A DNA stretch of 40,966 bases from contig CAZLJB010000001.1 in assembly GCA_964559195.1 (NCBI GenBank), forward strand, positions 1 through 40,966, in the 5' to 3' direction. Positions 16,913-40,288 of the stretch are shown piece after piece. This DNA comes from an uncultured Anaerolinea sp. GTDB lineage: Bacteria > Chloroflexota > Anaerolineae > Anaerolineales > Villigracilaceae. Under the pieces are notes generated by a model. It had not been told where the DNA came from and did no database searches. It saw nothing but the letters and a program-made list of their open reading frames with translations. How positions within the stretch are numbered: position 1 is the first letter of the stretch; the number at the start of each line of letters is the position of its first letter. Position numbers and translations under genes: made by a program.

Positions 16913-16949
16913 GTGAACAATTACAACCGTTTAGTATATTAATTGTTTA

Positions 16950-18959: not shown

Positions 18960-18975
18960 TTTGACCTCTTTTCCT

Positions 18976-19320: not shown

Positions 19321-19403
19321 AATTTACTCCTTCGGCAAAAAGGTAAGTTTATTAAACCTGGATCGTAATCCAAGCTATTTTATAAATTGGTGACACATGA
19401 GAT

Positions 19404-19922: not shown

Positions 19923-19932
19923 TTTTCACCTT

Positions 19933-19970
19933 CGTATACTATGTTTAGTTATTACTAAACATAGTATACG
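19933..19970. promoter_or_regulatory. 38-bp near-perfect palindrome (17-bp arms), candidate operator
   Basis: cgtatactatgtttagt-tatt-actaaacatagtatacg. 18 of 19 position pairs are complementary. Located 11 nt upstream of the regulator ATG and overlaps the -10 box. Confidence 0.6.
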
Positions 19971-19991
19971 TTCAATATGACAATATGTCAA
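19963..19991 (-). promoter_or_regulatory. Sigma-70-type promoter of the GbsR-type regulator operon
   Basis: Minus strand reads TTGACA-17 nt-TATACT (-35 at 19986-19991, -10 at 19963-19968). Confidence 0.6.
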
Positions 19992-20514
19992 GGGTTTTCT
20001 GGTAAATGTTTTCTAGTAAATAATTTATTGGCAGCCTGCAAGTCAAACAACCGGTCTCCTTCCCACCACCCGGATTAATCCATCACCCCCGCGCGTTCAA
20101 GTTTAAATATTCCCTAAATTAACCTCCCTCACTAGACGTGTGATCTTCCCGCAGGCTGATTGACAAACAACCGCTCCTAAGCCAATGGCAGAAAAGGTTT
20201 TTCTGGAGAACTATACTTAATCTAAACAATAGATAACAATCCAGCCAGATTAGATTTCGGCCAAATGTGCTGCCCAGCGAGTGGGTTTCCCCTAGTCTTG
20301 TGTTTTTGGGCCTGATCCTGGCGCAAAAATACAAGAAAACCTCTTCCATGCAGTTATTGATAGAATTTGCTTTTCCATTATTGACGTTATTTAGGTCTTG
20401 CCCGTTTATAAATTCCAACTATTAAGCTGATATATCATTCTAGAATGGTTCAAAGTGAGGGCCAAACAATTCACATTTCAATCTAAACGAAAAAACAACA
20501 TGCCAGGAAAAATG

Positions 20515-24790: not shown

Positions 24791-25876
24791 TTATAAATAA
24801 CGCTCCTGGTGATGCTTTTTCAAATGAGCCACCACTGAGCGTACTTGTTGTGATTGATCAGATTTACAAATTAACAGCGCATCACCTTTGTCAACCACCA
24901 CAATATCATCGATACCGATCGTGACGATCAATCTCTCATTACCATTTCCAAAAACCAGGGTATTATGGGTTTCGAGTGCAAGATGTTGGCTGTTTATGGA
25001 AATATTCCCATTCATATCGGGCAGGAGTACTTCGAAAAGCGAATCCCATGAACCCACATCACTCCATCCGAGTCCGCTGGCAGGCAAAACAGCCACCTTT
25101 TCTGCGTTTTCCATAATGCCATAATCAATAGTTTCGACCTTCAAGTCGCCCCACTTTGCCGAAATTACGGCGTCACGATCTTCTGCGGAGGCTTTGCAAA
25201 TTTGATCCAGCACATCATTCAGCGCAGGCATTTGATGTCGAAACTCAGCTAAAATTCGGTCTGTCTTCCAAATGAACATACCACTATTCCAGGAATGATC
25301 ACCGGTCCGGATCAACTGTTGGGCTGTCTTTTCATCCGGCTTTTCAGTGAAGCGTTTGACAGTATAAACCGGATAATTAAATTTCTCCTGGATCAACAAG
25401 GCTTGCTGAATATAACCATACGCTGTTGAAGGAAAGGTAGGTGTTATTCCCAGGGTAACCAGGTAATCCAATTTTGCAACCTCAAAAGCGGTCCTCATCA
25501 AGTAATCGAAAAGGTCAATGTTACGAATATGGTGATCGGAAGGCAAAATTGCCATAATAGCTTGCGGATCACGTTGATGCAAAATTGCGGCTGCCAGACC
25601 CACCACTGAGGCAGTACCGCGAGGTCCTGGCTCGATTAAGTAGTTTTCAGCTGGAATGGTCGGAACCTGGTCTCTGATTTCTGCCATTTGGTCTTCGACC
25701 GTAACAATTAATATTCGTTCCGGTGGAAAGAGATTACGCAAACGGGATACAGTGCTCTGCAATAATGTTTCTTCCCCCAGTAACGGGAGAAGCTGCTTGG
25801 GTTTATTCTTCCGGGAAACAGGCCATAACCTGGTTCCACCACCACCAGCCATGATCACAGCATAAGAATGTTCCAT
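24791..25876 (-). CDS. manC: Mannose-1-phosphate guanylyltransferase (GDP-mannose pyrophosphorylase)
   Basis: AVIMAGGGGTRLWPVSRKNKPKQLL nucleotidyl-transferase loop, YGYI, WNSGMFIW. 361 aa with no PMI/cupin extension. Its stop lies 2 nt before the kinase start. Confidence 0.85.
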   Translation of the reverse strand: MEHSYAVIMAGGGGTRLWPVSRKNKPKQLLPLLGEETLLQSTVSRLRNLFPPERILIVTVEDQMAEIRDQVPTIPAENYLIEPGPRGTASVVGLAAAILHQRDPQAIMAILPSDHHIRNIDLFDYLMRTAFEVAKLDYLVTLGITPTFPSTAYGYIQQALLIQEKFNYPVYTVKRFTEKPDEKTAQQLIRTGDHSWNSGMFIWKTDRILAEFRHQMPALNDVLDQICKASAEDRDAVISAKWGDLKVETIDYGIMENAEKVAVLPASGLGWSDVGSWDSLFEVLLPDMNGNISINSQHLALETHNTLVFGNGNERLIVTIGIDDIVVVDKGDALLICKSDQSQQVRSVVAHLKKHHQERYL

Positions 25877-25917: not shown

Positions 25918-27174
25918 TCATCTCGAGATGGAAATTAATTTGTACTCATTGACCAGGTAATAAATTAATAATAATGTGAATAGTACCGCCATCACAATAA
26001 CCTGCACCCAAACCACCTGGGCCAGGGTCGCGTGGAAAAAGATAATTCCCAGCACTTGCGCAACACCAGCTGCTATTACAAATCCGGTGCTTTTCCCTGC
26101 ACCCAATGAAAGTCGATAATTAACGAGCACGTTCGCCAGCGCATAAAGGGAGGTGGCGAGAGCATACAACCAGAGCAGTGTGGCAACGCCCAAATATTGT
26201 TTTCCAAAAAGGATACTTACAATCCACTCTGGAAAGGATAAGGTTAGCAGCACCACCGGTAAGGAAATCGAGGTCACAATCCCCAATGATAGCCAAAGCA
26301 AGTAGGTGTGGGGTTCACCCTTTTTATGTTTTTGCGCCACAATTGGGAACATCGTAGTCACAACCGACCAGGTTGCAAAAAATACTATTCGACCGATCAA
26401 TGCCAGGGCGGCATATTGCCCTGCCAGCTCAGCCGGGAAAAAGCGCTTTACCAACAGAACATCACTATTATTAATTAATATTTGTCCAAGTTGAGAAACC
26501 AATACCGGCAATGCAAACAAACTTAAGGTTTTCTGCATTTTCTTATCTGGAAACACTCCGGCAGGCAAACCCTTTACCGCCAGTTTCGCGGTCAACCACG
26601 TCAGTACAAATGACAAACTGATGCCAAACACTGCGCCCACAATTGAAAAGCCCAACAAAACAAGACCAATTCCAATTAAGAAGCGCGTCCACATTTCAAC
26701 CTGATAGGTTAAGGCCAAAACCCCAAAACGAGTCTGCCCCTGCAGAACTCCTCGTTCTACTCCCTGAAGCAGGCTAAAAGGAAGTGCGATGCCAAATACT
26801 ATAAACGGGATGGCAGATGCAGTATTAAAAAACGTTTGCCAGAAGGCAGCCCCAATCGCAAACACGGTAACCAATAGCAGCCCAAACCCAAACCCAACTC
26901 GTTCCGCCCACTTTAAAACCCCCGCCAAGGCTACCGAATCTCCATCCGCAGTATATATGGCTGCATAACGGGCTGTAGTCATTTGAAGCGGAACAGTAAT
27001 AAAGGTAATAACCAACAGCAAAGTGACAATAAGTGATAAATCGGCAAACATAGCCGGACCAAGCCAGCGTCCGAGGATCAGGTTATAAATATAATTGCCA
27101 GCATTGACGACGGTCATGCTAATCATCAAAATCAAGCCGGCAGAAGTAATCGAACGGTTATTTTCTGATTTCAT
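25918..27174 (-). CDS. Polysaccharide/oligosaccharide flippase (MOP/Wzx-like)
   Basis: About 12-14 TM helices spread over about 420 aa, a layout typical of Wzx/MurJ-type exporters. ATG 27174 chosen; an in-frame GTG at 27198 is an alternative start. Confidence 0.78.
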   Translation of the reverse strand: MKSENNRSITSAGLILMISMTVVNAGNYIYNLILGRWLGPAMFADLSLIVTLLLVITFITVPLQMTTARYAAIYTADGDSVALAGVLKWAERVGFGFGLLLVTVFAIGAAFWQTFFNTASAIPFIVFGIALPFSLLQGVERGVLQGQTRFGVLALTYQVEMWTRFLIGIGLVLLGFSIVGAVFGISLSFVLTWLTAKLAVKGLPAGVFPDKKMQKTLSLFALPVLVSQLGQILINNSDVLLVKRFFPAELAGQYAALALIGRIVFFATWSVVTTMFPIVAQKHKKGEPHTYLLWLSLGIVTSISLPVVLLTLSFPEWIVSILFGKQYLGVATLLWLYALATSLYALANVLVNYRLSLGAGKSTGFVIAAGVAQVLGIIFFHATLAQVVWVQVIVMAVLFTLLLIYYLVNEYKLISISR

Positions 27175-27234
27175 GGATCCCGATTTTTCTTCCACCACTG
27201 ACTTTCGAAAATTAGTAGTAAATTGGGTTTAAGG

Positions 27235-27597
27235 TTAGGCGAGAGCAGCTTCTACTGTTTCGAGCAGAATACGCGAACTTGACGGTTTTGTTAAAAAGCC
27301 GCGGACACCAATTTGCGCAGCAGCCGCCATTTCCTGATCATCGCCACTGGCAGTCAGGATAATAACAGGCAGTTGGAGTAATTCATTATCGGTGCGAATC
27401 AAGCGCAACAAACTGAGACCATCCATTACCGGCATGGATAAATCCAAAATGGCAAGGTCAACCGGCGATTTATGCAAAATATCCAATCCACTCTGCCCAT
27501 TGGATGCAATCAGGACTGTATAACTGGCTTTCCGTAGCGTATAGCTAAGAATCCGTTGATTGTTTGAGTCGTCATCAATAATCAAGATTGTGGTCAT
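27235..27597 (-). CDS. Stand-alone response-regulator receiver (CheY-like)
   Basis: DDD acidic pocket (8-10), phospho-acceptor D52 in AILDLSMP, T82 in ILTAS, K104 in LTKP. 120 aa, no output domain. Confidence 0.9.
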   Translation of the reverse strand: MTTILIIDDDSNNQRILSYTLRKASYTVLIASNGQSGLDILHKSPVDLAILDLSMPVMDGLSLLRLIRTDNELLQLPVIILTASGDDQEMAAAAQIGVRGFLTKPSSSRILLETVEAALA

Positions 27598-27642
27598 AGG
27601 CCGGGTGAGTTCCAGGGTATGGCTTGAAAGAAAACAAACATT

Positions 27643-27987
27643 CTAAAAAGCCTTCGGGATAATTTGGGAAGGATCGATCGAAGTAAATACCTGATCAAAC
27701 TTTGTCAGCTTGAGAATTCGCGCAGCAGCTTCTTCGCGCGGCCATACCAGGCGAACATCTCCGCCCCCGATGCGTGTTCGTTTTAAGGCGCTAACCAATA
27801 CGGCCAGACCAGCCGAATCAATCATTTTAACATCCGTTAGATTGAATACCAGATGAATTACACCCGCATCAATAAACTCATCACAAATCTTTCGTAATGC
27901 TGGTGCATCAAAGGCATCCAAACGACCGGAAAGAACGATCGAAACAATTTTGATAATGTGTTCGGTGGGAAAAATTTGTAAAGACAC
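27643..27987 (-). CDS. STAS-domain anti-sigma-factor-antagonist-like protein (copy 2)
   Basis: VKMIDSAGLAVLVSALK with conserved Ser58 in DSAG, and ILKLTKFDQVF C-terminal helix. GTG start with an AAGGAG RBS 5 nt upstream. Confidence 0.85.
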   Translation of the reverse strand: MSLQIFPTEHIIKIVSIVLSGRLDAFDAPALRKICDEFIDAGVIHLVFNLTDVKMIDSAGLAVLVSALKRTRIGGGDVRLVWPREEAAARILKLTKFDQVFTSIDPSQIIPKAF

Positions 27988-28048
27988 AATAACTCCTTAT
28001 GCCATAGGTGCCAATTATTAAATAATCTTCGTTGAATTTTTCAGGACG

Positions 28049-28456
28049 CTATGATAGTTTCTTCATCAGTGTCCATTTATTTTGGTCGCCAGTTCTCTGA
28101 TAATCCATTTTATCAACCAGTAATTGTATTATTGCCATACCATACCCGCCCACGGCCAGACCGGTGGGATCTGGCATTGTAATTGCATCAAAATCAAGAA
28201 TCGCAGGTACCCCGCTGTCAAATGTTTGAATATTCAACACATCCTCGTTGATACTCAAATCAATTATGATGGAACCGTTTGGGTCGCCACGATAAGCATG
28301 ATCCACCAAATTAATAAGAAGTTCATGCAATGCCAATTCGCATCCACTGACAAGTTCATCCGAAATTTTTGTTTCGAGTAGGATGGAACGCAGGTTTTCA
28401 TCAGCGACGCGGATTTCTGGATAGGTAGATTTTATAACTATTTGTCTATTGTTCAT
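28049..28456 (-). CDS. RsbW/SpoIIAB-type serine protein kinase (anti-sigma-like, HATPase_c_2)
   Basis: N-box ELALHELLINLVDHAY, G-box FDSG and GGYGMAIIQLLVDKMDY. 135 aa. Start is 2 nt after the phosphatase stop. Confidence 0.85.
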   Translation of the reverse strand: MNNRQIVIKSTYPEIRVADENLRSILLETKISDELVSGCELALHELLINLVDHAYRGDPNGSIIIDLSINEDVLNIQTFDSGVPAILDFDAITMPDPTGLAVGGYGMAIIQLLVDKMDYQRTGDQNKWTLMKKLS

Positions 28457-28458
28457 GA

Positions 28459-29979
28459 TTAAATTATCTTGATAACAATGATAGTACGATCATCATCTTG
28501 AGAAAGGCCGCTAGAGAAATCACTCGTAGCCTCAAAGATTAGGGCGCCAATTTCTACGGAAGATCGCTGCCGGGATGAATCCAATAATTTCAATAATCTA
28601 TCATATCCAAACATTTCTCCTTCAGAATTATGCGATTCCGGGAATCCATCAGAGGCCGCAATAAAAATATCGCCGGGCGATAACGCCAGTGTGTAGGATG
28701 AATAATCGTAAGCCCCGAATATTCCTACCGGTATATCCTGCGCTTCAAGCAAAACAGGAACATTATTTACTGGCACGTACAATATGGGACTTTGTCCTGC
28801 ATTACAGTAAGACAGACTTAACGAAGATCGATCCAGAATACCAATAAATGCCGTTGTGAACATTCCCACAGTAGAGAAATCGTCCAGAAGATCAGCATTC
28901 AATCTTTTCATCAACTGATGGGGTTCAGTGAAAGGCATATTTCGCGCCGCAGACCGGGCAACCGTCCGAGTCATACTCATTAATAAAGCTGCCGGCATGC
29001 CTTTTCCAGTCACATCTCCCAATAGAAAAATTAGGGGCTGGTTTGGCAGTAAAACAATATCAAAAAAATCACCCCCCACTTCTAGGGCAGGGTTTGATGT
29101 AGCATAAAAATCAACACCTGGCACCAGAGGTAGCTTTTGGGGAAGTAAGGCAGTTTGAACCTGGTGAGCCAGACTCAATTCAGTTTCAAGGCGGGTTCGA
29201 GCCAAGGCCTCCTGAACGAGAAGGAAATTTTCTATCTGGGCACCGGCCTGTCCAGCCAGCGCTTTTGCAAGTTTGATATCGGGTGTAGTGAATTCAATAT
29301 TTTTATTAAAAACACCCAGAGCTGCAAAGATGTCTTCCTTGATAGGAATAGATACCATCATGAGGTTTCTCAAACCTGCAGGCAGATTTGCCAGATCCTT
29401 AAAATTGTGCTGTTCTGGGTTGTTCCGGTAATAAGTAGAAATAACCACAATCTCATCATTCGTCAATGGATTAATCCCAAACTGACAAACAATTGCTGCC
29501 TGACCAGGCTGTAGCATAATCGCAAATGCACCATTGACATCCAGAAGTCTGCAAGCTTCACTGACAAGTAATTCAAATAGTGCTGAACTTTCCAGACTAT
29601 TTTGGGGCGATTTGCTCAGGTCATAAAGCGCCACAAGTCGGTCCTGGGTTTCAACCAGGGCAGCCGTCAGACTTTCAAGCTCTGCTTCATTATTTAGAAG
29701 GCTCGAAAATAATTCAGCCATTGTGTCAGCGAAGGATTGCCAAAATTCACCAGTAAGACCATATATCTGAATTGCAAGTCCATATTCAGAACCAGACATT
29801 AATGGAAACCCGGTCGGATTTACGTCCATTGGATAGGAACCAATAATTCGATCCTTATCAACCAGGCGAACACAAATAGCGCCAGCGCGAATGCAAATTG
29901 CTGCGATGGCATGAAATCGGCTTTGATGATTGACAAATGAATCAAAAAGCATAGGGACTGAAAACCTATCCGAGATCAA
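28459..29979 (-). CDS. GAF-domain-containing PP2C (SpoIIE/RsbU-type) serine phosphatase
   Basis: SpoIIE-domain motifs GGDFFDIV, GDVTGKGMPAALLMS, YCNAGQSP, SDGFPES, DDRTIIVIKI. An N-terminal region of about 270 aa is GAF-like. TTG 29979 overlaps the upstream stop (TTGA); ATG 29952 is an alternative start. Confidence 0.9.
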   Translation of the reverse strand: MISDRFSVPMLFDSFVNHQSRFHAIAAICIRAGAICVRLVDKDRIIGSYPMDVNPTGFPLMSGSEYGLAIQIYGLTGEFWQSFADTMAELFSSLLNNEAELESLTAALVETQDRLVALYDLSKSPQNSLESSALFELLVSEACRLLDVNGAFAIMLQPGQAAIVCQFGINPLTNDEIVVISTYYRNNPEQHNFKDLANLPAGLRNLMMVSIPIKEDIFAALGVFNKNIEFTTPDIKLAKALAGQAGAQIENFLLVQEALARTRLETELSLAHQVQTALLPQKLPLVPGVDFYATSNPALEVGGDFFDIVLLPNQPLIFLLGDVTGKGMPAALLMSMTRTVARSAARNMPFTEPHQLMKRLNADLLDDFSTVGMFTTAFIGILDRSSLSLSYCNAGQSPILYVPVNNVPVLLEAQDIPVGIFGAYDYSSYTLALSPGDIFIAASDGFPESHNSEGEMFGYDRLLKLLDSSRQRSSVEIGALIFEATSDFSSGLSQDDDRTIIVIKII

Positions 29980-30305
29980 CTTTGGAGCGCAGACTTTTCA
30001 TCAGGGTAAATCGTAAACGCTTTATCCAACCTTGTAAGTTCGAATATTACTCTGACGGGTTGCTGAAGTGCACACAAAGAAAGTTCACCACCCTTTTCGC
30101 GACAATGTTTCAGGCCCTGTACCAGAGTTGAAAGTGCGGAAGAATCAACAAAATTTACATCCGCCAAATTAACCACCAGATGAGTCTGGCCCAAATCGAA
30201 CTGCTCCTTTAACCAGTCACGCACTGGCCCAACTTCATGAGCATCAAAACGACCTTTCAGATATAAAATGGGAATATTTCCCTGAGACGATTTTTTTATT
30301 TCCAT
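29976..30305 (-). CDS. STAS-domain anti-sigma-factor-antagonist-like protein (copy 1)
   Basis: LYLKGRFDA, VNFVDSSALSTLVQGLK with Ser55 in DSS, IFELTRLDKAF. 109 aa. Confidence 0.88.
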   Translation of the reverse strand: MEIKKSSQGNIPILYLKGRFDAHEVGPVRDWLKEQFDLGQTHLVVNLADVNFVDSSALSTLVQGLKHCREKGGELSLCALQQPVRVIFELTRLDKAFTIYPDEKSALQS

Positions 30306-30352: not shown

Positions 30353-31540
30353 TTACTTCCGTTTTAACAATTCTTGAAAGTGAATCAAATACCAATCCAC
30401 CACATCATTAATCGGCAAACCATTTGCCGCCAGAAAATTACGAGTTCCAATTTCCAATTGCCGATCCGGGTAGTCAATCACACGAGAAATTGCATCTGCC
30501 AGGCTTTTTGAACTTGTTGCTTCAAAGAATTCGCCATCATAACCTTCCTCCAACACCAGCTCGGCTAAATCTCCCAGGTTTGGTAGCACTACCGCCTTTC
30601 CATAACCACCAGCCTGGTGTAAGACACCAGAACTACCCGTAGTACTTGTATATGGAAAAACAACCACCCAGGCGTCTCCGAAAATTCTCGGCACATCTTC
30701 TTCCGAAACGTATCCGGTAAAATGTAGGTTTGACAAATGAGAAAATTGAGCCTTAACTCCATCCAGGTAGCCTTTCATATTCGGGCTATCGGTCCCAGCG
30801 ATCACAAGTCTTGCGTCCGGGTGAGTAGGAAGTAGCATCTCAAATGCCTCGGCTAAAATCTCCACTTTTTTATAGGTGCCAAATTTCCCAAAGGTCATGA
30901 TATTTGGTACACCGCCTGGCATGCTATTCGGTTGAATGTCAGTGGATTCCTCAAATGAGCCGTGTGGTGCAAGGATTACATTTCTTGCACCATATTTTTT
31001 CTCCAGGATTTCGACATATTTCGGGATTGTTACTGCAACCAAATCTACGGATAATAGAAACCGCGTTACGATATTGCCAAACATCCGTATAAGATTTTCT
31101 ATGATGATATTTCCACCAAAGCCAGCGGATTTCAGATTAACTGTCTCCACAATGTTATGAAGCAGCACCACCGTACTGTAACCAGCATTTTTTACCAACC
31201 AGGGGGTTAATAAGCCCAGGGTAGCAGGAATTTTTTTATCAGCAAAAGATGCAAACTGAATATTGAACAACACGATGTCTGGATTTACCTGGCGCACGAC
31301 CTCTCGAATTCGAAACGCATTATTCAAAGCGCCAAACTTCCAGCATGGAATAAAACGTACAGGTATGGAATTTGCATCATCTATTTGTGGATAAGCCTGC
31401 CCTTCTGGGAGCTCATCAACCAACAAAACTAATTCGGTGACACTCTCAACTTTCAAACGTAGAAAGCGCACAAAATGATAAGCATATTCATTTAATGATC
31501 CCTTGGATGGTGGGTGAGCAGTTACCATGGCTATGCGCAT
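30353..31540 (-). CDS. Glycosyltransferase family 4 (GT-B, group 1)
   Basis: MRIAMVT start. The C-terminal half has the GT1/GT4 nucleotide-sugar-binding region (FPYTSTTGSSGVLHQAGGYGKAVVLPNLGDLAELVLEEG). 395 aa. Confidence 0.86.
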   Translation of the reverse strand: MRIAMVTAHPPSKGSLNEYAYHFVRFLRLKVESVTELVLLVDELPEGQAYPQIDDANSIPVRFIPCWKFGALNNAFRIREVVRQVNPDIVLFNIQFASFADKKIPATLGLLTPWLVKNAGYSTVVLLHNIVETVNLKSAGFGGNIIIENLIRMFGNIVTRFLLSVDLVAVTIPKYVEILEKKYGARNVILAPHGSFEESTDIQPNSMPGGVPNIMTFGKFGTYKKVEILAEAFEMLLPTHPDARLVIAGTDSPNMKGYLDGVKAQFSHLSNLHFTGYVSEEDVPRIFGDAWVVVFPYTSTTGSSGVLHQAGGYGKAVVLPNLGDLAELVLEEGYDGEFFEATSSKSLADAISRVIDYPDRQLEIGTRNFLAANGLPINDVVDWYLIHFQELLKRK

Positions 31541-31551: not shown

Positions 31552-32316
31552 TTAACGATAGACGCCCTTAAAATCGTTCGCCCAGATCACTGAAATGTCA
31601 CGCAAAAAACGCTGGACTTCTTTTTTTGTATTGACCTTTGAGCCTGGAGCATCGATCCATGAGACTGGCACTTCGGCGATTTTATAACCAAATTTATAAG
31701 CAAGATACAGGATTTCCAGGTCGAACGAAAAGCCCATAATGGTTTGTTTACCGTGCAGCTTTTTAGCGACTTCAGATGTATACATTTTAAAACCACATTG
31801 CGTATCCTTGACCCCAATATGCATCAAATACTTTACTATCAGGCGCAAACCTCCGCTCAAAATCCTGCGCAGCAGGGATTTCTTACCTTCGTCTGCACCT
31901 TCTGCAGCACGCGACCCGACTGCCAGATCATAACCATCCTGATCAAGTTTCGCCAACAATTTCGAGACTTCTTCAATGGGAGTCGAATTATCAGCATCAG
32001 CAAATAAAATATATTTCCCACGCGCTGCCAGCATTCCCCTTCTGACAGCACTGCCTTTTCCTCCATTCCTAGGAGTTCTTAAAACCGTCAAATTGACCAG
32101 TCCCAAATCCTCGCACAGTTTTGCGGTCTGATCTTTCGATCCATCGTCCGCAATCAACAATTCCCATGCAAAACCCAAATCTGAGACGTGTGATGCGATT
32201 GCTCCGATTGATGTAATAATCCGGTCTTGTTCATTATAGGCCGGAATTACAATCGACAGATACGGAGATTCGACAAGCGGTGTTGTTTTCCATTTAACAT
32301 AATTTTCGTATGGCAT
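31552..32316 (-). CDS. Glycosyltransferase family 2, polyprenyl/dolichyl-phosphate hexose synthase-like
   Basis: LSIVIPAYNEQDRI, ADDGSKDQT, FADADNS (DxD), QCGFK. Short (254 aa) soluble GT-A enzyme, as in Ppm1/DPM1/ALG5-type enzymes. Confidence 0.85.
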   Translation of the reverse strand: MPYENYVKWKTTPLVESPYLSIVIPAYNEQDRIITSIGAIASHVSDLGFAWELLIADDGSKDQTAKLCEDLGLVNLTVLRTPRNGGKGSAVRRGMLAARGKYILFADADNSTPIEEVSKLLAKLDQDGYDLAVGSRAAEGADEGKKSLLRRILSGGLRLIVKYLMHIGVKDTQCGFKMYTSEVAKKLHGKQTIMGFSFDLEILYLAYKFGYKIAEVPVSWIDAPGSKVNTKKEVQRFLRDISVIWANDFKGVYR

Positions 32317-32357: not shown

Positions 32358-33521
32358 TCATGCAACAAAAATCCAATTCACAAAAATTGTCACAAACATA
32401 CCGAGCAAGACAGCAAAACAAATCAGCATTGTCCGATCGACACTCTCCCGGCGACCCCACCAACCCAATAGCATAAATGCGGGAAATGACGTCAAAACAT
32501 ATCGGATAATGCTGCTTGTTGCACTTGCTGAAGGTATTAACAGTATCAATAAAACAAAGATTGCATAACCTTCTCCCAGTCGAATCCAGATAAACGGAAC
32601 CATCACTAGGAAAGCCAGAAGGGTGGTTGTATTCCAAAAGTTAGTCATCCAGCTTTTATTGACCGTTGTACTCAATAATAACTTAATGTTTTGAACAATT
32701 ACAGACACAGGGCCAACGTTTTGCCGGCCCCAGGCCGCCTGGGTCTCAATAAAAGCCAGTGGGCGCTCGAAGTTTCTCTGCAAAAAATAGATATATGCAA
32801 TCAAGCCAAGTGGAATAATTGCAATAATTAATAAATCGAACCAATGCTCCCGAAAACCATGCAGCAGATTGGTCCAACTTTCCTTCTTATGCAATGTTTT
32901 CAAAGACCAACCCTGAACACGCAGCCACTCCCATATCACCAACGGCCACAAAAGAACACCCAGGTTTCGAGTGGCAGCCGCCAACATGCCAATTAAGGCC
33001 GCCGCAATCCACATTTGCCGGCGAGCATAATACATGGTTGCCAGGGCAAAAAGCAAAAACAGACTCTCGGTATAAACACTGCTGAAATAAAAGGAAGTTG
33101 GAAATAATGCCAGGTAAAAAACCGTTCTTTTGGCCGAGTCGCTGTCAAGTTCAAGTTCTGTTAATTTATATAAAAAAAACAATGCCCCTAAAAAGGCAAC
33201 ATTACTGAGCAAGAATCCAGCCAGAATTACATCATCCCCAACCAGAGGTGCCGTAAGCCGCATAAGAAGCGGGTATACTGGAAAAAATGCAACATTACTT
33301 TGTTGCTCAGGGCGGTACCAATAACCGTTCTCGGCAATATCAACATAGTATTGGCTGTCCCACTTGGCCCACATCGATAAAAAAGGTGAGTTCAGATTTG
33401 CTATCCAATGACCCGCGTCTGTGGGAAGCATTAAATCTCCCGCCATACCCACGCTAAATATTAATAGGCGCGATACCAGGAAAGCCAAAAGGGGGAGTAC
33501 CATCCATTTATAGGATTTCAT
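32358..33521 (-). CDS. PIG-V-like GT-C membrane glycosyl(mannosyl)transferase
   Basis: About 10 TM helices. The first extracytoplasmic loop has WDSQYYVDIAENGY...VAFFPVYPLLMR, the motif I associate with the PIG-V (GT76-like) family. ATG 33521 overlaps the upstream stop (ATGA); the track ORF extension to 33587 lies inside the upstream gene. Confidence 0.68.
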   Translation of the reverse strand: MKSYKWMVLPLLAFLVSRLLIFSVGMAGDLMLPTDAGHWIANLNSPFLSMWAKWDSQYYVDIAENGYWYRPEQQSNVAFFPVYPLLMRLTAPLVGDDVILAGFLLSNVAFLGALFFLYKLTELELDSDSAKRTVFYLALFPTSFYFSSVYTESLFLLFALATMYYARRQMWIAAALIGMLAAATRNLGVLLWPLVIWEWLRVQGWSLKTLHKKESWTNLLHGFREHWFDLLIIAIIPLGLIAYIYFLQRNFERPLAFIETQAAWGRQNVGPVSVIVQNIKLLLSTTVNKSWMTNFWNTTTLLAFLVMVPFIWIRLGEGYAIFVLLILLIPSASATSSIIRYVLTSFPAFMLLGWWGRRESVDRTMLICFAVLLGMFVTIFVNWIFVA

Positions 33522-36163
33522 TGGGTCACATCCAGCTTCAGGTCCTGAAATATCACAGGTCCTCCAAATGCGTCCATTCCGATCCAACCATCTACACCTG
33601 TGATGAGAATATTAGCGGCTATTTCCTTATCATCCACAGATATTGTTATTTTCCCGGCATCAACCGCTACTTTTAACACCATAGATTGAGTATTGGAGTT
33701 TAATTTAGCCGTTCCCTGCCCTTTAAATTTACCATTGGCATCATTTGAACCCCACAAAATACCTTTTCCGCCATTGATAAATCGCACAACGTAGGAATTA
33801 TTCTTAGTGCCGCGCTCTGACATATTCAGAATAAATCCGCCACCCACAGTGGATGATCCGCTGGGCAGCGTTATTTTCGAGCTAATCGTATAAACTGAGG
33901 CCTGCACGCCGGAATTCCACAGGTAATCTGCAACATTGGACACAGTCTGAGTAATTGTGTTGTTTCCAATCGTCCACTTACCACTAACCACACGCTGGTC
34001 AGTAAATCCATCCAATGCAGAATAATTCCCCTTAAAAGCTGCCCCGACCCCATCCACTGTGACTTCATCATAAGCTACGCTTGCCACCGATGTCAGTAAT
34101 CCGATATAACCATTATTTTGATTTGACCCAAAGGGTACACTCTGGATCACCATCCGATCATCCAGATATATGGAATAGGACGATTCCCCGCTGGTCACTC
34201 TCAAAGTGTGATGATCTGTGCCAGCATGGTTAACTTCTGCATAGCCCTGATTTTTATAAACGCCATTGGCATCAAAATAGCCCCAAATTAGGGCGTTATC
34301 ACGTTTGTCAGAATAACGTACCATCGACGAGCCGGTTAATCTGTCACTATTCGGCATATTGAATACCAGGCCGGCCCCGCTGCCCTGCTGATGCGTCAGG
34401 CCAATCTGATAACTGAAGTTCTTGTAGGTAGTTTTGGTATAGATGGCAGTCAGATCGAAGCCATCAGTGCGTGTTTGGACAAAATTCCCATTCTGAAAAC
34501 TCCAAGCTCCATTGATTGCCACCCAGTTCTGATCAGAAAGCTTACCAGTAAATACGCCGTGATACGGAGATTGTCCTCCGATAACGGCACCCGAAGAATC
34601 AACAGGGCCGGTCGTGCTTCCGGTGGAACCTGGTGTAGCCGGAACAGGAGTAGTTTTTGCGTTTCCAGAAACCGTCGAAGTGGATCTTACATGAACGCTA
34701 CCAGTATTGGTTAAAATTCCCGGAGTTGGGCCGCCATTTACTGGCTTTGGTTTTGTCGGGCTGGTTATTGTGGAATTAACTTTTGTGACAATTGGTCCGG
34801 GAGTCTTGGGAACGGGAGTAGACTGGCCGGGAGTCTTTGAAATGTGAGCTGGTGAACCTGTTATCGAAACAGGCGCAAGCGGGCCAGTCGGTGCGCCGGT
34901 CACACCGAACAATGGGTAAACCTCCACCAGCGAGAAGGCTACCGACGAAGCGGACGTGATCAGGCCGATGCTGCCTTGCTTGCTTTGTAAGGGCACATCT
35001 CTAACCAGAAGCTGATCGTCAAGAAATACATCAAAAGAACTATCCCCGGAAAATATTTGGAAATTATGCAACCCAGTTCCCGCTGGAGGAATACTGGTAA
35101 ATCCCTGACGGGTAAAGGCACCATTCGGATCAAAGTAACCCCAAATGACAGCGTCGGTTTGATCAGAAAAACGCACCACCTGTGCACCATTGACCTGGTA
35201 CGGAGATGGCATATTAAACAGTACACCCGCACCCTGACCGGAGTTATGGTTAAAAGTTGCGCGTAAGGTAAAATTCTGAAAAGTGCTTGTTTCATATCCC
35301 ATACCCGCGTTTAGAACAACCGGATCGGATTGCACCATTTTTTTATCTGCAATTTTCCAAGTTCCGGCAAACGGCACCCAGCCTGCACCTCCGGGATTCT
35401 GATCAAAATCGCTGGTATAAACCAGATTACCTGGATTGGGGTTATCAGCAGAGGTTAATTTAAAGGTATCGAAAATAGCCGGACCCAAAGTATAAAAACC
35501 GATCAGCCCATTTTTATAAAAAAGCGGGCGGTCTTCAATCAACTTTTGACCATTCAATTGGACAATATACGTGTTCTGGTAGACATACAGGTCCAGGCGA
35601 AATTCGGTGGTGTTGATGGAAAGCGGAACTTGAATCTGAGTGATAAAACTTCCAGAAGTATCCATATAACCGGCCACCAGGAAAAGAGTATTTGGATCTG
35701 GACGGGACAGGTAAATACGCTGCTGCTTGGCTGTCATATTTGGATATTGAGCGTTAAAGGATATGCCAGCCTCGCGTGTATCCTTTTTCAAGGTTATATA
35801 AACACTCGCATGGTATGGGGTATCCTCAATTAGTTTTGAAGGAATAAAAACCTGGGCAGAAGTATCACCCCCAACCGTCTGCGCCAAGGCTGAATCCCGA
35901 ATTGTCCAAACCCCATCCCCAAGAAACCACCTGCGCAGGTTAACATCATCAAAATTTTGTTCATAGGGTAGCGTAAAAGTGGTAAATTTATCTTTTGGGG
36001 CTAATAGGAACTGAATGGTACCGAGCAAAATCGCCACGGCAATAACCAACCCAACCGCAGAGAATACGGAGCGATTACTCGGCAAGCCTGGTATGCGAGT
36101 CCGTATACGGTTGAGCAAATTTTCAAGTTGAGTGACGATTTTTTTTAAAAAAGATAATTTCAT
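33518..36163 (-). CDS. Membrane-anchored extracytoplasmic protein with four ConA/LamG-like beta-sandwich repeats and a Pro/Thr/Ser-rich linker
   Basis: N-terminal single TM (VFSAVGLVIAVAILLGTIQFLL). Four repeats of about 170 aa share the pattern G.W.i....Q...y.NF......G.GAG..FNM......vVRfSd....iWGYfD.NG.f..QG......H...v......v.LDD. The linker lies between repeats 2 and 3. Confidence 0.8.
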   Translation of the reverse strand: MKLSFLKKIVTQLENLLNRIRTRIPGLPSNRSVFSAVGLVIAVAILLGTIQFLLAPKDKFTTFTLPYEQNFDDVNLRRWFLGDGVWTIRDSALAQTVGGDTSAQVFIPSKLIEDTPYHASVYITLKKDTREAGISFNAQYPNMTAKQQRIYLSRPDPNTLFLVAGYMDTSGSFITQIQVPLSINTTEFRLDLYVYQNTYIVQLNGQKLIEDRPLFYKNGLIGFYTLGPAIFDTFKLTSADNPNPGNLVYTSDFDQNPGGAGWVPFAGTWKIADKKMVQSDPVVLNAGMGYETSTFQNFTLRATFNHNSGQGAGVLFNMPSPYQVNGAQVVRFSDQTDAVIWGYFDPNGAFTRQGFTSIPPAGTGLHNFQIFSGDSSFDVFLDDQLLVRDVPLQSKQGSIGLITSASSVAFSLVEVYPLFGVTGAPTGPLAPVSITGSPAHISKTPGQSTPVPKTPGPIVTKVNSTITSPTKPKPVNGGPTPGILTNTGSVHVRSTSTVSGNAKTTPVPATPGSTGSTTGPVDSSGAVIGGQSPYHGVFTGKLSDQNWVAINGAWSFQNGNFVQTRTDGFDLTAIYTKTTYKNFSYQIGLTHQQGSGAGLVFNMPNSDRLTGSSMVRYSDKRDNALIWGYFDANGVYKNQGYAEVNHAGTDHHTLRVTSGESSYSIYLDDRMVIQSVPFGSNQNNGYIGLLTSVASVAYDEVTVDGVGAAFKGNYSALDGFTDQRVVSGKWTIGNNTITQTVSNVADYLWNSGVQASVYTISSKITLPSGSSTVGGGFILNMSERGTKNNSYVVRFINGGKGILWGSNDANGKFKGQGTAKLNSNTQSMVLKVAVDAGKITISVDDKEIAANILITGVDGWIGMDAFGGPVIFQDLKLDVTQ
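34560..34905 (-). other. Low-complexity Pro/Thr/Ser/Gly-rich linker-coding segment within the 881-aa protein (approximate bounds)
   Basis: Translates to GAPTGPLAPVSITGSPAHISKTPGQSTPVPKTPGPIVTKVNSTITSPTKPKPVNGGPTPG...TTPVPATPGSTGSTTGPVDSSG. Confidence 0.7.
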
Positions 36164-36230: not shown

Positions 36231-39110
36231 TTATTTCGGCTGTTGACCCTCAATTATAACCGGACTGCAGCATAAATCCTTTTCTTGAACGGCCTGCACA
36301 TTGGCTGGCAATGCCAGTGTTTCATACTCAGCTTCTGAAATTAAAAGCAACCCTTCCACAACCAGTGGTGCATCGTCCTGTTTGTCAAAGTAAAAAGCAT
36401 ATTGTCCTTTAAGGCCATTTACAGTACCCAGATCAAAAAACTGATATTTGCTGTTAATCACAACGATATCGGATGGGATCAATTTGCCAAGCTCCGCCGC
36501 GGAATAAGTACTTGTATCGAGAGGCTTGCGCGCAGAGGTAAAAACCATTCTTTTATCGTAAAATCCGAGGTTGATTGGATCAGATTGTAGTTCAAAGAAT
36601 TGCTTGTCAGAGTAGAGCTTGGACTGCACGATTAGATCATTCTTCGTGGCTGCCCCCCGTAATAGCAAATGAAAAACACCTGTTTCCGGCAAAGTCACAT
36701 CAATCCGAAAAGCTGTCTTACGTGGCACGCCGATAAAACCACCTTCAATCGTTCCCCATAAACCAGGCGTGATCATGTTTAGTCGGTTGTATTTACTGTC
36801 AGAAAAAAATTGAAACAGGCGGAACATTGGCGAAAGATAATAAGAACTCGAAATGATATTGGGGTTAAAAGCCAGAATAGTACTGCTCGGGCGAAAGAAC
36901 TGTTCCTTGTGAGCTTTCTCATATAAATTCAAAATCGAAGTGTGCAAATCACTTGTTACAAGCGTCAATCGATCATAATTTTCAAGATCACCAACCACAT
37001 TGGAGTGGCGCAGATCATAGTAACGGGTTAATTCCAAATTACGGGAAAGTATCTGGAGAAAAGTGTTCCAATCAGTATCAATAAAAAGTGGGACCCGGTT
37101 GGCCGGCGGTAAGTCTGTAAATTCATATAAGGCATAACTTTCATTTTCCATTAATTTTTTAACATAAGCGCTGCGCCGGTCAAACTCCGGCAACAGAACT
37201 CTTTCAACATCCTTCAAATATTCCTGCCCGCCCACCGTGCTGGCTACCAATTCTTTATTAACAATAATATATCGCAGATCCAGGTCACGAGCGATGTTGA
37301 TCCACCAGGGTTGTTGGTAGTATAAGGCCCTTAATAAAAGGAAAAATTCGTGCTTATTATCCGAATCTCCTGTCAGTCCATAATAATAACTGGGTAAATC
37401 GAGGTAATAAATATGGAACTTGTCAATGAATTTGTGCGCAACTCCATTGATATCAATTTCAGCCTTGGCCGTTTCAGTTGGAGGCAATACCACCACTTTG
37501 CCAGGCGGCAGTTGGAGCAAGGCTTCCTTGATTTCACGCAATGGACCCACCGGATAAGGCGCCAGAAAATTGCTAAAATTTCCGGAGAAAAAAACCTTGG
37601 TATAGGCTGTATTTGAAAAAATGGGTACCAGGGCGAATAGGGTAATTACCAAAGGCAGGTATCTGGTTTTGGATAGTCGCCCGAGTATGTCCTTCACCCA
37701 CTGAAGAAAGGCTTTGACAGCCGGTTTGTGAGAACCTGATTCACTGCTGACCCATTCCCTGATCTCCTGTTCAATCCAAACCAATGAAACCGGAATCATC
37801 ACACAGCCCATCACAAACATGATGAATTCAAACCGGTGTGGAAAACGTAAAACCTGAACCACGGTTGCCAACAGTGTCACAACCAGGTCGCCAACCATCG
37901 TGCGAGTTCCATTGGCATAATTGCTTATAAATGAAATTGTGCGGTGAAAGGTAGGAAGCCATTGTGGATCGGTATACCCGAGTGTAGCCCACATCGAAAA
38001 AAAAGTACTGATATAAACCACAACCATCAACGCCCGCATCGGCTCTGAATCAAACAGGCTCTCACGCGCTTTTCTATAAAAGAGTGGCATTAACATCAAG
38101 GTCGTATAAATTGCATTTGACCAGCGCGGGACCTTGGAGAGATAATCCCCGGTCGTGAACTTATCCATAATGCCAGCCATATCAAATGCCAACAAATGGC
38201 CAGGTGCAATCGAGGCATCGACAATAAAATAATAATCTGCCGGGACGGTCTCAGAAAGATTTGCAACCCCACTCAACGCGTAATATTTTACAAATAAATA
38301 ATAAGGAATTAATGTAACAACCGCAAGAATTGCGAAAGAGCCAATACAACGCCAGAAACGCACTTCCAAAAATAATCGTTTCCAATCTCTTCGAAAGGTA
38401 TTCCAGCCTTCACGCCAGGCCTTGGGTTTAAGAATTAACTTCCAGCGTCCATCTCTGATAACTTGTATCAAATCCATCACAACCAGCGTGGCAACTGCCA
38501 GGGCCATATACAAACCAAACAGCACCAGGTAATGCACCGCAGGATTAAATAAGGTAATCAAACATGCGGCAATCACGGGGGTGTACGGTTTTTTTTGTGG
38601 AAATAGCAATCCATAAGTCATCGCAACGATCGCGACCAGAAACATTGAAAAGCCAAGGATCAGGGTATAAAAGTGCGTTATCTTGGCATAATCCATAATC
38701 AAAAAAATCGCCATCACCGGCGCAGCGGTAATGGTATAGACTGTTTCAACTTTATAACGTGGTAGTATCTTGCTGATAAACCATGCTACCGCCAGGTATC
38801 CTACATAAGCAATGGTTGGGACAACAATTGGGATCGCAAATGGTAAAACTTTATAATACCGCAACCAGGTCGTGTGAAACGAATACCGAACCCGAAATTC
38901 ATAACCGTTGGTCAGCTGATTGAATTTTCCCGCCGCCTGGTCAATGAACTGGCTGTTTGGATTAAAAAATGGCACCAACTCATCGGCATTAATAACTGCA
39001 TCACCACGCAAAATGGATGGGATACTGGCAATCACACCCCGAAACATGATCACCGAAAGGGTGTAATAACAAAGACCGACAATTAAAATAATTTTACGTG
39101 TGGATGTCAT
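36231..39110 (-). CDS. Large polytopic membrane protein of unknown family (N-terminal half with 10 or more TM helices plus a C-terminal soluble domain of about 430 aa)
   Basis: TM helices are dense through about residue 520, then a hydrophilic domain runs to the stop. The layout is reminiscent of GT-C/YfhO-type enzymes, but I recognise no motif. ATG 39110 chosen; TTG 39125 is an alternative start. Confidence 0.75.
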   Translation of the reverse strand: MTSTRKIILIVGLCYYTLSVIMFRGVIASIPSILRGDAVINADELVPFFNPNSQFIDQAAGKFNQLTNGYEFRVRYSFHTTWLRYYKVLPFAIPIVVPTIAYVGYLAVAWFISKILPRYKVETVYTITAAPVMAIFLIMDYAKITHFYTLILGFSMFLVAIVAMTYGLLFPQKKPYTPVIAACLITLFNPAVHYLVLFGLYMALAVATLVVMDLIQVIRDGRWKLILKPKAWREGWNTFRRDWKRLFLEVRFWRCIGSFAILAVVTLIPYYLFVKYYALSGVANLSETVPADYYFIVDASIAPGHLLAFDMAGIMDKFTTGDYLSKVPRWSNAIYTTLMLMPLFYRKARESLFDSEPMRALMVVVYISTFFSMWATLGYTDPQWLPTFHRTISFISNYANGTRTMVGDLVVTLLATVVQVLRFPHRFEFIMFVMGCVMIPVSLVWIEQEIREWVSSESGSHKPAVKAFLQWVKDILGRLSKTRYLPLVITLFALVPIFSNTAYTKVFFSGNFSNFLAPYPVGPLREIKEALLQLPPGKVVVLPPTETAKAEIDINGVAHKFIDKFHIYYLDLPSYYYGLTGDSDNKHEFFLLLRALYYQQPWWINIARDLDLRYIIVNKELVASTVGGQEYLKDVERVLLPEFDRRSAYVKKLMENESYALYEFTDLPPANRVPLFIDTDWNTFLQILSRNLELTRYYDLRHSNVVGDLENYDRLTLVTSDLHTSILNLYEKAHKEQFFRPSSTILAFNPNIISSSYYLSPMFRLFQFFSDSKYNRLNMITPGLWGTIEGGFIGVPRKTAFRIDVTLPETGVFHLLLRGAATKNDLIVQSKLYSDKQFFELQSDPINLGFYDKRMVFTSARKPLDTSTYSAAELGKLIPSDIVVINSKYQFFDLGTVNGLKGQYAFYFDKQDDAPLVVEGLLLISEAEYETLALPANVQAVQEKDLCCSPVIIEGQQPK

Positions 39111-39157
39111 ATTTCTGGGTCTCAATCAAGGTAAGCCAACGGACCCAATATCCGGTG

Positions 39158-40288
39158 TTACTGAATTTTCGCGCGAATTTCAGCAAAATAAGCATCCAAT
39201 TCACCGCGTAATTCCCTGCTGCGCTTTACAAGGTGCTGTTGTATATTTTCCCGATTTAAAATGACAGTTTTAATTCCAACAAGCAGCGTCTCCGCTAAAA
39301 ATGGTTGGTTGATGTTCAAACTGTGCTCTGACATACCAAGGTAGTCAACCAATTCCTGCACTTTAACATCATAAACCAAACCAAAAAATGGTTTTCCCAG
39401 GATCGAAGAAATAACCAGTGTATGCAGGCGCTCGGCCAAAACCAGGTCACAGCTTGAAATAATTTCACCCGCTTCCTGAGCAGTTTGTGGATCATGAACA
39501 ACAAATGAAATGTCTGGAATTCGCTTTGCAAATTCTTTTAAGACGGATAAATCGTCATTCGCTTTAAATTTACTTTGCATCGGCAGCGCATGAATAGTAA
39601 TGGGTTTTTCCGCATTGAGTCTGGTCAAGCAGTCAGCCAGGTTTTGTAAAAAACCTTCCCATGCCTCCCGGTTTTCGATATCAAAATTCAAATTAAGCGC
39701 CAGGTGAAGCCTACCAGTCGGGTAAGCAGACACTCTACCCGGCGTAAATACTTCAGGGGAATTCGCAAAAACTGCATCAGGCACCCTGCGCATTTTTTCA
39801 GGATTGATCTTTAATCTCTGGCAGGTTTTATAGGATTTATCATCCCGAACAGAGACAAAATCCACCTGTGTAAGGATCATCCGTGCCAGGCGATCCCCTC
39901 CAGCCGAAAGCAAAGGCCCCACACCAATATTACTCATGATTACTTTTTTTCGGGCAACCAACTTTGTAAATGTAACGGACGCCAAAATCATCAGCAACGT
40001 CGAATATCGATTACGCCCCACGCTGGCATATAATTCCTTGATAATACTGCCCCCGCCGAAAAATAAAATATCACTGGTTAATAAATGGCGCAAAAAGCGT
40101 GGCAGCTCCCTGGTAGTGTGAAAAGACTCCACATCATAATTCGGTCTTAGATAAGATGTGGTAAATTCAGGATCGTAGGAATTGACTGCATAATGATGCT
40201 CCCGCCCCAACTGGGCCAAAAAAGTCTCCAGAAGCAGTTCATCTCCAATATTAAATTGTCCATGTGTGCCCAGGAAGGTTATTTTCAT
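39158..40288 (-). CDS. Polysaccharide pyruvyl transferase family protein (CsaB/WcaK/EpsO type)
   Basis: MKITFLGTHGQFNIGDELLLE N-terminal motif and C-terminal AERLHTLVISSILGKPFFGLVYDVK motif typical of the pyruvyl-transferase family. 376 aa. First gene of the cluster. Confidence 0.82.
   Translation of the reverse strand: MKITFLGTHGQFNIGDELLLETFLAQLGREHHYAVNSYDPEFTTSYLRPNYDVESFHTTRELPRFLRHLLTSDILFFGGGSIIKELYASVGRNRYSTLLMILASVTFTKLVARKKVIMSNIGVGPLLSAGGDRLARMILTQVDFVSVRDDKSYKTCQRLKINPEKMRRVPDAVFANSPEVFTPGRVSAYPTGRLHLALNLNFDIENREAWEGFLQNLADCLTRLNAEKPITIHALPMQSKFKANDDLSVLKEFAKRIPDISFVVHDPQTAQEAGEIISSCDLVLAERLHTLVISSILGKPFFGLVYDVKVQELVDYLGMSEHSLNINQPFLAETLLVGIKTVILNRENIQQHLVKRSRELRGELDAYFAEIRAKIQ

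Follow-up and report, generated by a model that had tools for sequence, protein, structure and literature searches.

What is the role of a protein with four lectin-like repeats whose gene overlaps that of a membrane glycosyltransferase? The question is raised by a locus in a stretch of 40,966 nucleotides (nt) from an uncultured Anaerolinea sp. of the Villigracilaceae (Chloroflexota; contig CAZLJB010000001.1, positions 1 to 40,966), the whole of which is called the window below. In this locus the stop codon of a gene for an 881-amino-acid (aa) protein, which we call the four-lectin gene, overlaps the start codon of a gene for a PIG-V-like glycosyltransferase of the GT-C class. An initial annotation of the sequence had described an anchored protein with four internal repeats and had proposed that it is either the acceptor glycoprotein of the transferase next to it or a glycan-binding scaffold for the product. 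Our preferred reading, to which we give an even chance, is that the 881-aa protein is a non-catalytic, membrane-tethered subunit that binds glycan and holds the acceptor or nascent polymer for two GT-C enzymes, encoded on either side of it.

The protein was modelled with AlphaFold2 (AF2) on an alignment of 50 sequences, and the model had a mean predicted local distance difference test score (pLDDT) of 84. The gene and the parts of its product are as follows.

33518-36163, minus strand: four-lectin gene, an open reading frame (ORF) with an ATG start, 881 aa, stop codon included
36002-36076, minus strand: signal-anchor transmembrane helix, aa 30-54 (hydropathy peak at aa 36-54 and AF2 helix at aa 30-54)
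35444-35992, minus strand: repeat R1, aa 58-240 (BLASTP and HHalign to R2-R4; beta-sandwich with pLDDT >90)
34907-35437, minus strand: repeat R2, aa 243-419, DUF1080/CBM66-type beta-sandwich (PF06439, E 3.6e-4 when scanned alone)
34568-34906, minus strand: disordered spacer rich in P/T/S/G, aa 420-532 (composition and pLDDT)
34046-34567, minus strand: repeat R3, aa 533-706, the best match to PF06439 and CBM66 (PF06439 and phmmer)
33521-34030, minus strand: repeat R4, aa 712-881 (HHalign to R1-R3 with probability 99-99.9%; AF2 beta-sandwich)

Hydropathy analysis detected a single hydrophobic segment in the protein, at aa 36-54, and in the model a basic helix (aa 3-23) lies N-terminal to the anchor helix, on the cytoplasmic side. 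A cleaved Sec signal peptide was considered and ruled out by the n-region of 33 aa and by a proline at +1 after 'LLA'. This residue, Pro56, is nearly invariant across the 50 homologues, and a proline at +1 is known to block signal peptidase I. Because of the long n-region and the near-invariant Pro56, the N-terminal segment is regarded as an uncleaved signal anchor, and the protein is predicted to be of type II (N-in, C-out) with all four modules outside the membrane. The layout runs from the anchor through R1 and R2 near the membrane and a disordered spacer of about 100 aa to the distal R3 and R4.

To establish the repeats, each was cut out and compared with the others. By pairwise BLASTP, R2 and R3 share 39% identity (E 1e-43), and the remaining five pairs 23-26% (E 4e-4 to 4e-11). 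When profiles of the single repeats, cut from the 50-sequence ortholog alignment, were compared by HHalign, all six pairs were matched with probabilities of 97-100% (E 4e-11 to 4e-70). We concluded that the four-repeat structure is real and far beyond chance. A self-BLAST of the whole protein gave the identity match alone; the repeats were detectable once they were excised. The ORF, hydropathy, BLASTP, HHalign and AF2 together bear out the architecture first described, namely an ORF of 881 aa with one N-terminal transmembrane helix and four repeats of about 170 aa, and the three peptide strings quoted in that description are found at aa 311-355 (R2), 596-641 (R3) and 774-818 (R4). The first repeat had been called more diverged. 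Among the paralogues it does stand furthest from the others (18-22% identity to them), yet between orthologues it shares the highest conservation with R2, the mean column conservation being 0.71 for R1, 0.71 for R2, 0.64 for R3, 0.60 for R4 and 0.20 for the spacer.

In a scan of the whole protein, PF06439 matched aa 545-703 (R3) with 40.6 bits against a gathering cut-off of 26.8. Scanned singly, R3 (24.6 bits) and R2 (21.1 bits) fell slightly under this cut-off, and R1 and R4 gave no match to PF06439 and are linked to R2 and R3 by HHalign (probability 97-99.9%). The NCBIfam scan of the protein gave no match, and neither Pfam nor NCBIfam scans detected a catalytic domain in it. The sole match in a sequence search of the PDB was CBM66 (4azz, 4b1l; phmmer E 3e-5 to R3). 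The AF2 model contains four beta-sandwiches, mostly with pLDDT >90. In the Foldseek search of the PDB, the best superposition of a single domain was on CBM66 4b1m, with a template modelling (TM) score of 0.86 and a root-mean-square deviation (rmsd) of 1.9 Å over about 157 columns; the TM scores to CBM66 were 0.83-0.86, and for 4b1m, 4b1l and 4azz together the values were TMt 0.81-0.86 and rmsd 1.8-1.9 Å. The whole chain matched neurexin LNS domains, laminin LG domains, tandem galectins and, from Bacteroides, BT3469 (a putative glycosyl hydrolase according to its deposition); the four-domain query gave poor global TM scores, and the single-domain matches to CBM66 are the informative ones.

PF06439 was formerly named DUF1080 and is now named '3-keto-disaccharide hydrolase', and the names DUF1080 and CBM66 denote the same domain (PMC5673643). 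Judged by sequence likeness and modelled fold, the repeats are DUF1080/CBM66 (ConA-like) modules. The ConA/DUF1080 type of fold had been anticipated in the initial annotation, and the structure prediction and Foldseek search suggested there as a check returned this predicted carbohydrate-binding fold. Carbohydrate-binding modules (CBMs) of family 66 are known to bind the ends of fructan chains and, in xanthan treated with a lyase, the side chain (PMC11002231). The prototype, BsCBM66 of the Bacillus subtilis levanase SacC (4azz, 4b1l, 4b1m), has the same ConA-like beta-sandwich and detectable sequence similarity. The 881-aa protein differs in that it is appended to no catalytic module and carries four tandem copies behind a membrane anchor, two of which, R1 and R4, have diverged beyond the reach of the Pfam model. 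Taken strictly as in CAZy, a CBM66 is a non-catalytic module within a larger carbohydrate-active enzyme, whereas the 881-aa protein stands alone. Fructan is an unlikely ligand of its repeats.

The gene that overlaps the four-lectin gene, and the overlap itself, are located as follows.

32358-33521, minus strand: PIG-V-like GT-C glycosyltransferase, 387 aa (PF04188, E 8e-14)
33518-33521, minus strand: ATGA stop/start overlap of the two genes (sequence)

The overlap reads GTG ACC CAA TGA, with ATG AAA TCC in the -1 frame, and confirms the ATGA junction first described. Hydropathy analysis gave about eight hydrophobic segments in the 387-aa enzyme, two of them overlapping, and no large soluble domain; NCBIfam gave no match and the PDB sequence search spurious matches only. 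To examine whether the arrangement is conserved, one genome per GTDB species was scanned for homologues of the four-lectin protein, and 50 loci were obtained, all of them labelled Chloroflexota and 46 with at least 34% identity to the query. A PIG-V-like GT-C lies immediately downstream of the four-lectin gene in 39 of 43 loci, or in 41 if two loci are counted in which only the N-terminal half was aligned, which inflates the apparent gap. Of 39 loci, each representing a species, 35 have retained a 4-nt NTGA overlap (29 ATGA, 6 GTGA), which persists down to 34% identity of the lectin protein; in three further loci the genes are separated by -1, +1 and +6 nt, and one junction could not be parsed. 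The linkage of homologues to GT-C genes, the absence of which the initial annotation had named as a ground for rejecting its proposal, is the rule, and none of the grounds for rejection given there was encountered. In the Anaerolineales the GT-C alignments start no more than 6 residues from the start codon in the overlap; in more distant loci they start 19-47 residues downstream of it, which we read as an N-terminal extension of the GT-C. The conserved overlap argues for a translational coupling under selection, by which the lectin protein and the small GT-C would be produced in stoichiometric amounts.

The gene on the other side of the four-lectin gene was found to encode a second candidate GT-C enzyme.

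36231-39125, minus strand: 964-aa membrane protein with a GT-C fold and a C-terminal soluble region with a CBM-like beta-sandwich (AF2, Foldseek)

This protein has no match in Pfam, NCBIfam or the PDB sequence search. Its AF2 model (pLDDT 85, predicted TM score 0.85) shows a multi-helix membrane domain, for which hydropathy gives about 12 hydrophobic segments, and behind it about 450 aa of soluble region with a beta-sandwich at its end. The top Foldseek matches of the model were AftD (6w98, E 3e-8), STT3 (9n9j_I, 8b6l_I), AftA (8if8) and ArnT (5f15), and the C-terminal sandwich matched CBM6, CBM35 and CBM61. GT-C enzymes bear a catalytic acidic motif in the first external loop, and D48-E49 in that loop of the 964-aa protein is invariant. 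On its modelled fold the protein is thus a GT-C enzyme of the AftD/STT3/AftA/ArnT-like kind. Its homologues at E <= 1e-3 number 311; some belong to Actinomycetota, none carries a Pfam annotation, and the 120 best listed of them share 43-90% identity with it; the protein looks like the representative of an undescribed GT-C family. Compared with the lectin protein it is the better conserved of the two (its nearest relative shares 85% identity with it, that of the lectin protein 72%), and it is found immediately upstream of the four-lectin gene in 37 of the 39 loci with enough flanking sequence. At one locus (L005, 5734-8797) its homologue is broken up into a pair of ORFs that overlap (5734-6699 and 6464-8797) and were missed by the gene caller; this is a frameshift or an assembly error. 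Since the 964-aa neighbour is also predicted to be a GT-C, the four-lectin gene would be flanked by two enzymes that use lipid-linked sugars on the outer face of the membrane.

The family to which the 881-aa protein belongs is narrow and is confined to Chloroflexota of the Anaerolineae type. A word-indexed search returned 139 homologues with identities of 34-72%, the majority aligned over 94-100% of the query. Those with a taxonomic label all belong to Anaerolineales, Caldilineaceae or other Chloroflexota, and all are named hypothetical except one with the UniRef label 'family 16 glycoside hydrolase'. When 1.84 billion representatives were searched with a profile of the family, 799 proteins were matched at E <= 1e-3, of which 181 were at E <= 1e-30. 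Because the matches number only 799 although DUF1080 domains are common, the subfamily is narrow and diverged, and by sequence the four-lectin family looks like a separate, narrow subfamily of DUF1080. Among 18 longer relatives drawn from the profile-search matches, four (P0316, P0317, P0320, P0329) are fusions in which repeats of the R2/R3 type stand at the C terminus of multi-pass membrane acyltransferases of the Acyl_transf_3 family (PF01757). Variants were seen at the fringe of the family, with 24-34% identity: a protein of about 680 aa that has three repeats and carries the spacer behind R1 (L053, 175-2217) and an ORF of 1254 codons with four or more repeats (L057, 9626-13387). At two contig ends (L054 and L055) the lectin gene directly follows the gene for Wzx.

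We prefer to see the 881-aa protein as a binding subunit rather than as a pure substrate because of the conserved, stoichiometric type of coupling and because of the Acyl_transf_3 fusions. Acyl_transf_3 membrane enzymes modify glycans outside the membrane, and GT-C enzymes likewise act on the extracytoplasmic side; the fusions suggest that repeats of this type may serve as an outside-facing, glycan-binding module of membrane enzymes. The protein is, as would be expected of an accessory subunit, extracytoplasmic by prediction, tethered, and encoded in conserved adjacency to membrane enzymes. The membrane-proximal R1 and R2 are better conserved among orthologues than R3 and R4, a pattern that fits a conserved protein contact near the membrane. 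The protein would associate physically with the GT-C enzymes.

Several points weigh against the binding-subunit reading. Neither locus L001 (Anaerolineaceae) nor L040 nor that of the cultured Litorilinea aerophila (L007) has a small GT-C next to the four-lectin gene, and the partnership is therefore not obligatory in cis. A DUF1080 domain by itself is no proof of a lectin role, since the characterised stand-alone members include enzymes. The model of the 964-aa GT-C already shows a CBM-like C-terminal domain of its own. Translational coupling is also compatible with an enzyme-substrate pair, and it is from likeness of fold and sequence that we infer glycan binding by the 881-aa protein.

Known systems offer partial parallels to a separate binding subunit. 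In the mycobacterial arabinosyltransferases AftD (6w98), the best structural match of the 964-aa neighbour, and EmbA/B/C, fused extracytoplasmic beta-sandwich CBMs stand beside a GT-C core that depends on polyprenyl-phosphate-linked sugars; AftD is reported (Tan et al. 2020) to have three CBMs. Here, in contrast, the lectin modules form a separate anchored polypeptide, tied to the small GT-C only by the 4-nt overlap, and the type of CBM differs. BcsB is a periplasmic cellulose synthase subunit anchored by a single helix, with jelly-roll carbohydrate-binding domains, and is considered to guide the nascent polymer. Like BcsB, the 881-aa protein is an anchored extracytoplasmic candidate accessory subunit encoded beside a membrane synthase; unlike it, it has no C-terminal anchor, is not partnered with a GT2 synthase and has a long disordered spacer, and there is no sequence relationship between the two.

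The four-lectin gene is part of a co-directional cluster of about 14 genes on the minus strand of the window. Besides the three genes listed above, the cluster contains the following.

39158-40288, minus strand: CsaB-like polysaccharide pyruvyl transferase (PF04230, E 5e-35; TIGR03609 CsaB, E 6e-42, below the cut-off)
31552-32316, minus strand: GT2 enzyme like polyprenyl-phosphate sugar synthases (PF00535; best NCBIfam matches PpgS, AglJ, ArnC, PgfS and Dol-P-hexose transferase, all below the cut-offs)
30353-31540, minus strand: GT4-type glycosyltransferase, Pfam 'group 1' (PF13692, PF00534)
29976-30305, minus strand: STAS protein
28459-29979, minus strand: GAF-PP2C (SpoIIE) protein
28049-28456, minus strand: HATPase_c_2 kinase
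27643-27987, minus strand: second STAS protein
27235-27597, minus strand: response regulator
25918-27198, minus strand: Wzx-type flippase
24791-25876, minus strand: ManC GDP-mannose pyrophosphorylase
21558-24788, minus strand: PAS/GAF hybrid histidine kinase

The pair of a GT2 and a GT-C enzyme pointed out by the initial annotation is present; it forms only part of this cluster, which includes a partner-switching module, and the 964-aa neighbour had been missed as a second GT-C. Synteny was assessed by comparing the window's 14 proteins with all loci by tblastn. The most constant neighbours of the four-lectin gene are the gene for the 964-aa protein and that for the CsaB-like pyruvyl transferase. 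The regulatory block (27235-30305) is syntenic in most related loci, and so are the Wzx flippase and the hybrid kinase. Gene calls around six homologues gave the same gene order in Anaerolineales and a rearranged but complete set in Caldilineaceae and Litorilinea. No family member was seen outside the cluster among the sampled loci with at least 34% identity. The distinctive proteins of the cluster are all 'hypothetical' in the databases searched, and a literature search on Chloroflexi, pyruvyl transferase and GT-C found no description of it.

The window and its three closest relatives (L008, L009, L011) are the only loci with ManC at the place between Wzx and the hybrid kinase. A ManC-like gene is located upstream, on the opposite strand, in L021, L025 and L038, and a type-I phosphomannose isomerase gene adjoins the lectin gene in L001. 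These ManC and isomerase genes point to mannose in the product. In L005 (2301-4370) a single ORF of 689 aa joins HATPase_c_2 domains to the Wzx flippase, which hints that the partner switch acts directly on the flippase. In an Actinomycetota metagenome-assembled genome (L006, JBDKJP010000019.1, 5890-14334), a member of the 964-aa GT-C family is accompanied by a pyruvyl transferase, a GT2-GT4 fusion and two STAS genes, with no four-lectin gene within the 15 kb of available sequence.

The operon structure of the cluster was judged from gene spacing only. Between positions 21000 and 40966 no intergenic terminator was found inside the cluster, and promoter-like sites were no more frequent than expected by chance. 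Terminator-like hairpins numbered 36 in this region against 19.6 +/- 5.2 in shuffled sequence, an approximately twofold excess, and all those checked lay within coding regions. Positions 1 to 20000 of the window carry ordinary housekeeping genes (YebC, RuvA, P5C reductase, MFS and ABC-F proteins, a CDF transporter, UbiA, an 851-aa penicillin amidase, PPK2 and IclR/MarR regulators), none of them related to the cluster.

A polysaccharide locus under a partner switch, SypA (a STAS protein) and SypE, is known from Vibrio fischeri as syp. Like syp, the cluster described here has a partner-switching module (STAS / Ser-kinase / PP2C) embedded among polysaccharide genes, along with a Wzx-type flippase and a hybrid sensor kinase. 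It differs in its phylum and in having GT-C enzymes and a pyruvyl transferase, and syp has no counterpart of the four-lectin protein.

Taken with these genes, the binding-subunit reading can be put as a sequence of steps. In the cytoplasm, ManC, the GT2 enzyme, the GT4-type transferase and the pyruvyl transferase would build a lipid-linked sugar or short oligosaccharide, probably mannose-containing and pyruvylated, which Wzx would move to the outer face. There, the AftD-like 964-aa and the PIG-V-like 387-aa GT-C enzymes would transfer it onto a growing envelope glycan. The four-lectin protein would bind this glycan as its presumed ligand and keep the acceptor by the membrane, near the active sites of the GT-C enzymes; for the 387-aa enzyme, which has no soluble domain, it would supply the CBMs in trans. 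Through the spacer, the distal R3 and R4 may retain the polymer further out in the wall.

The best surviving alternative, which we consider rather unlikely and which is compatible with the binding-subunit reading, is that the protein is an acceptor glycoprotein. The spacer would then be O-glycosylated by one or both of the flanking GT-C enzymes with a polyprenyl-phosphate sugar made by the GT2 enzyme, and the lectin modules would be functional cargo or would bind glycans on neighbouring molecules. It is a point in its favour that the P/T/S/G linker of about 110 aa first noted between R2 and R3 was recovered as 114 aa (aa 419-532), with 36 S+T, 18 P and many Gly, a net basic charge (7 K+R against 1 D+E) and pLDDT <50 across aa 421-517, so that it is presumably exposed and disordered. 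A spacer is located at the same position in 50 of 50 aligned homologues, with a length of 47-131 aa and no conserved sequence. The 881-aa protein is also the only ORF of at least 150 aa in the window with at least 20 P/T/S in any 40-aa stretch; no other P/T/S-rich protein was found there, and the window cannot show whether such spacers are generic in the organism. The two flanking GT-C enzymes and a GT2 of the polyprenyl-phosphate-sugar-synthase type stand in the same cluster, and STT3, an oligosaccharyltransferase, is among the structural matches of the 964-aa enzyme. In actinobacteria, PMT-type GT-C enzymes mannosylate S/T-rich linkers, and the likeness lies in the exposed P/T/S-rich linker, the GT-C and the GT2 polyprenyl-phosphate-sugar synthase in one system. 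In contrast to the PMT systems, the GT-C enzymes here are not GT39/PMT (one matches PF04188, the other no Pfam family) and the S/T richness of the linker is not conserved. Among the 50 orthologues the P+T+S content of the spacer ranges from 17 to 48%, several spacers are Ala-rich instead, and in one orthologue next to a GT-C gene the spacer contains just 5 S+T in 47 aa, which weakens the acceptor explanation. Moreover, the spacer is kept in L001 and L007, where there is no adjacent small GT-C; Wzx, the pyruvyl transferase and the GT4-type transferase are typical of polysaccharide rather than protein glycosylation; and the large GT-C, which has a CBM-like domain of its own, finds its best fold match in AftD, an enzyme that builds polysaccharide. 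Of the two possibilities offered by the initial annotation, the fold, the coupling and the Acyl_transf_3 fusions thus fit the scaffold better, and the variable S/T content of the spacer weakens the acceptor; the sequence cannot choose between them.

Many exopolysaccharide operons encode a glycan-trimming enzyme, and one or more of the DUF1080 modules might be an endo-glycanase, a lyase or a transglycosylase and serve to trim, release or remodel the polysaccharide of the locus. We think this improbable. It would agree with the stand-alone DUF1080 proteins that are enzymes, namely the 3-ketotrehalose hydrolase BT2157 and THTE_1561, an endo-xanthanase/lichenase (PMC9007349, PMC5673643), with the 'family 16 glycoside hydrolase' name of the one UniRef homologue, and with the Asp, Asn, Gln, Arg, Trp and Tyr residues conserved in each repeat. 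On the other hand, a regular-expression search for the GH16-type catalytic motif (ExDxxE; E-x-D-x(1,2)-E) found none in the 881 aa, and a GH16 assignment was ruled out on this ground. A 3-keto-glycoside hydrolase of the BT2157 / CCNA_01705 type was ruled out as well, because there is no sugar 3-dehydrogenase partner: none of the LacABC or GFO/IDH/MocA type was found in the cluster or in the other scanned ORFs of the window, and the context described in PMC9007349 is absent. The nearest solved relative, by sequence and by fold, is a non-catalytic CBM, and four tandem copies with a flexible spacer are typical of lectins and CBMs, in keeping with the LNS, LG and tandem galectin matches of the whole chain.

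That the protein is a generic surface lectin or adhesin for exogenous glycans, used in nutrient capture or attachment and co-located by chance, would suit its predicted surface exposure and the occurrence of CBM66/DUF1080 modules mostly in glycan-degrading systems (PMC11002231, PMC5673643), but is extremely unlikely, as its position between the same two genes is kept in 46 species-level loci, the 4-nt overlap with the next gene is conserved, and the cluster contains neither degradative enzymes nor sugar transporters.

A more elaborate version of the binding-subunit reading, for which we see very little likelihood, combines it with spacer glycosylation. The lectin protein and the small PIG-V-like GT-C would then be a 'split' enzyme of the Emb/AftD type with acceptor recognition by the four-lectin subunit, whose spacer would also be glycosylated and bound by the lectin modules of its neighbours. 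The result would be a self-assembling glycoprotein-lectin layer or sheath on filamentous Chloroflexota, switched by the partner-switching module.

The DUF1080 domain was already known and had been guessed correctly. What is new is the stand-alone, membrane-anchored architecture of four modules, which is restricted to a single bacterial lineage, the conserved way in which its gene is coupled to that of a GT-C, and its place between two GT-C enzymes in a regulated locus of about 14 genes. Should the protein indeed be the subunit with which a GT-C enzyme binds its acceptor, it would offer a clear example of this enzyme class receiving carbohydrate-binding modules in trans, and the repeats of the protein would be ready-made probes for a pyruvylated, probably mannose-containing surface polymer of Chloroflexota. 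The core genes are present in Litorilinea aerophila, which has been cultured, so that the idea is open to experiment. The cell envelope of Anaerolineae-type Chloroflexota, filamentous bacteria that are abundant in sludge, sediments and lakes, is poorly understood, and the analysis defines a conserved envelope-glycan locus in them. The finding, no surprise to a glycobiologist, provides a solid and testable lead on the biology of the Chloroflexota envelope.

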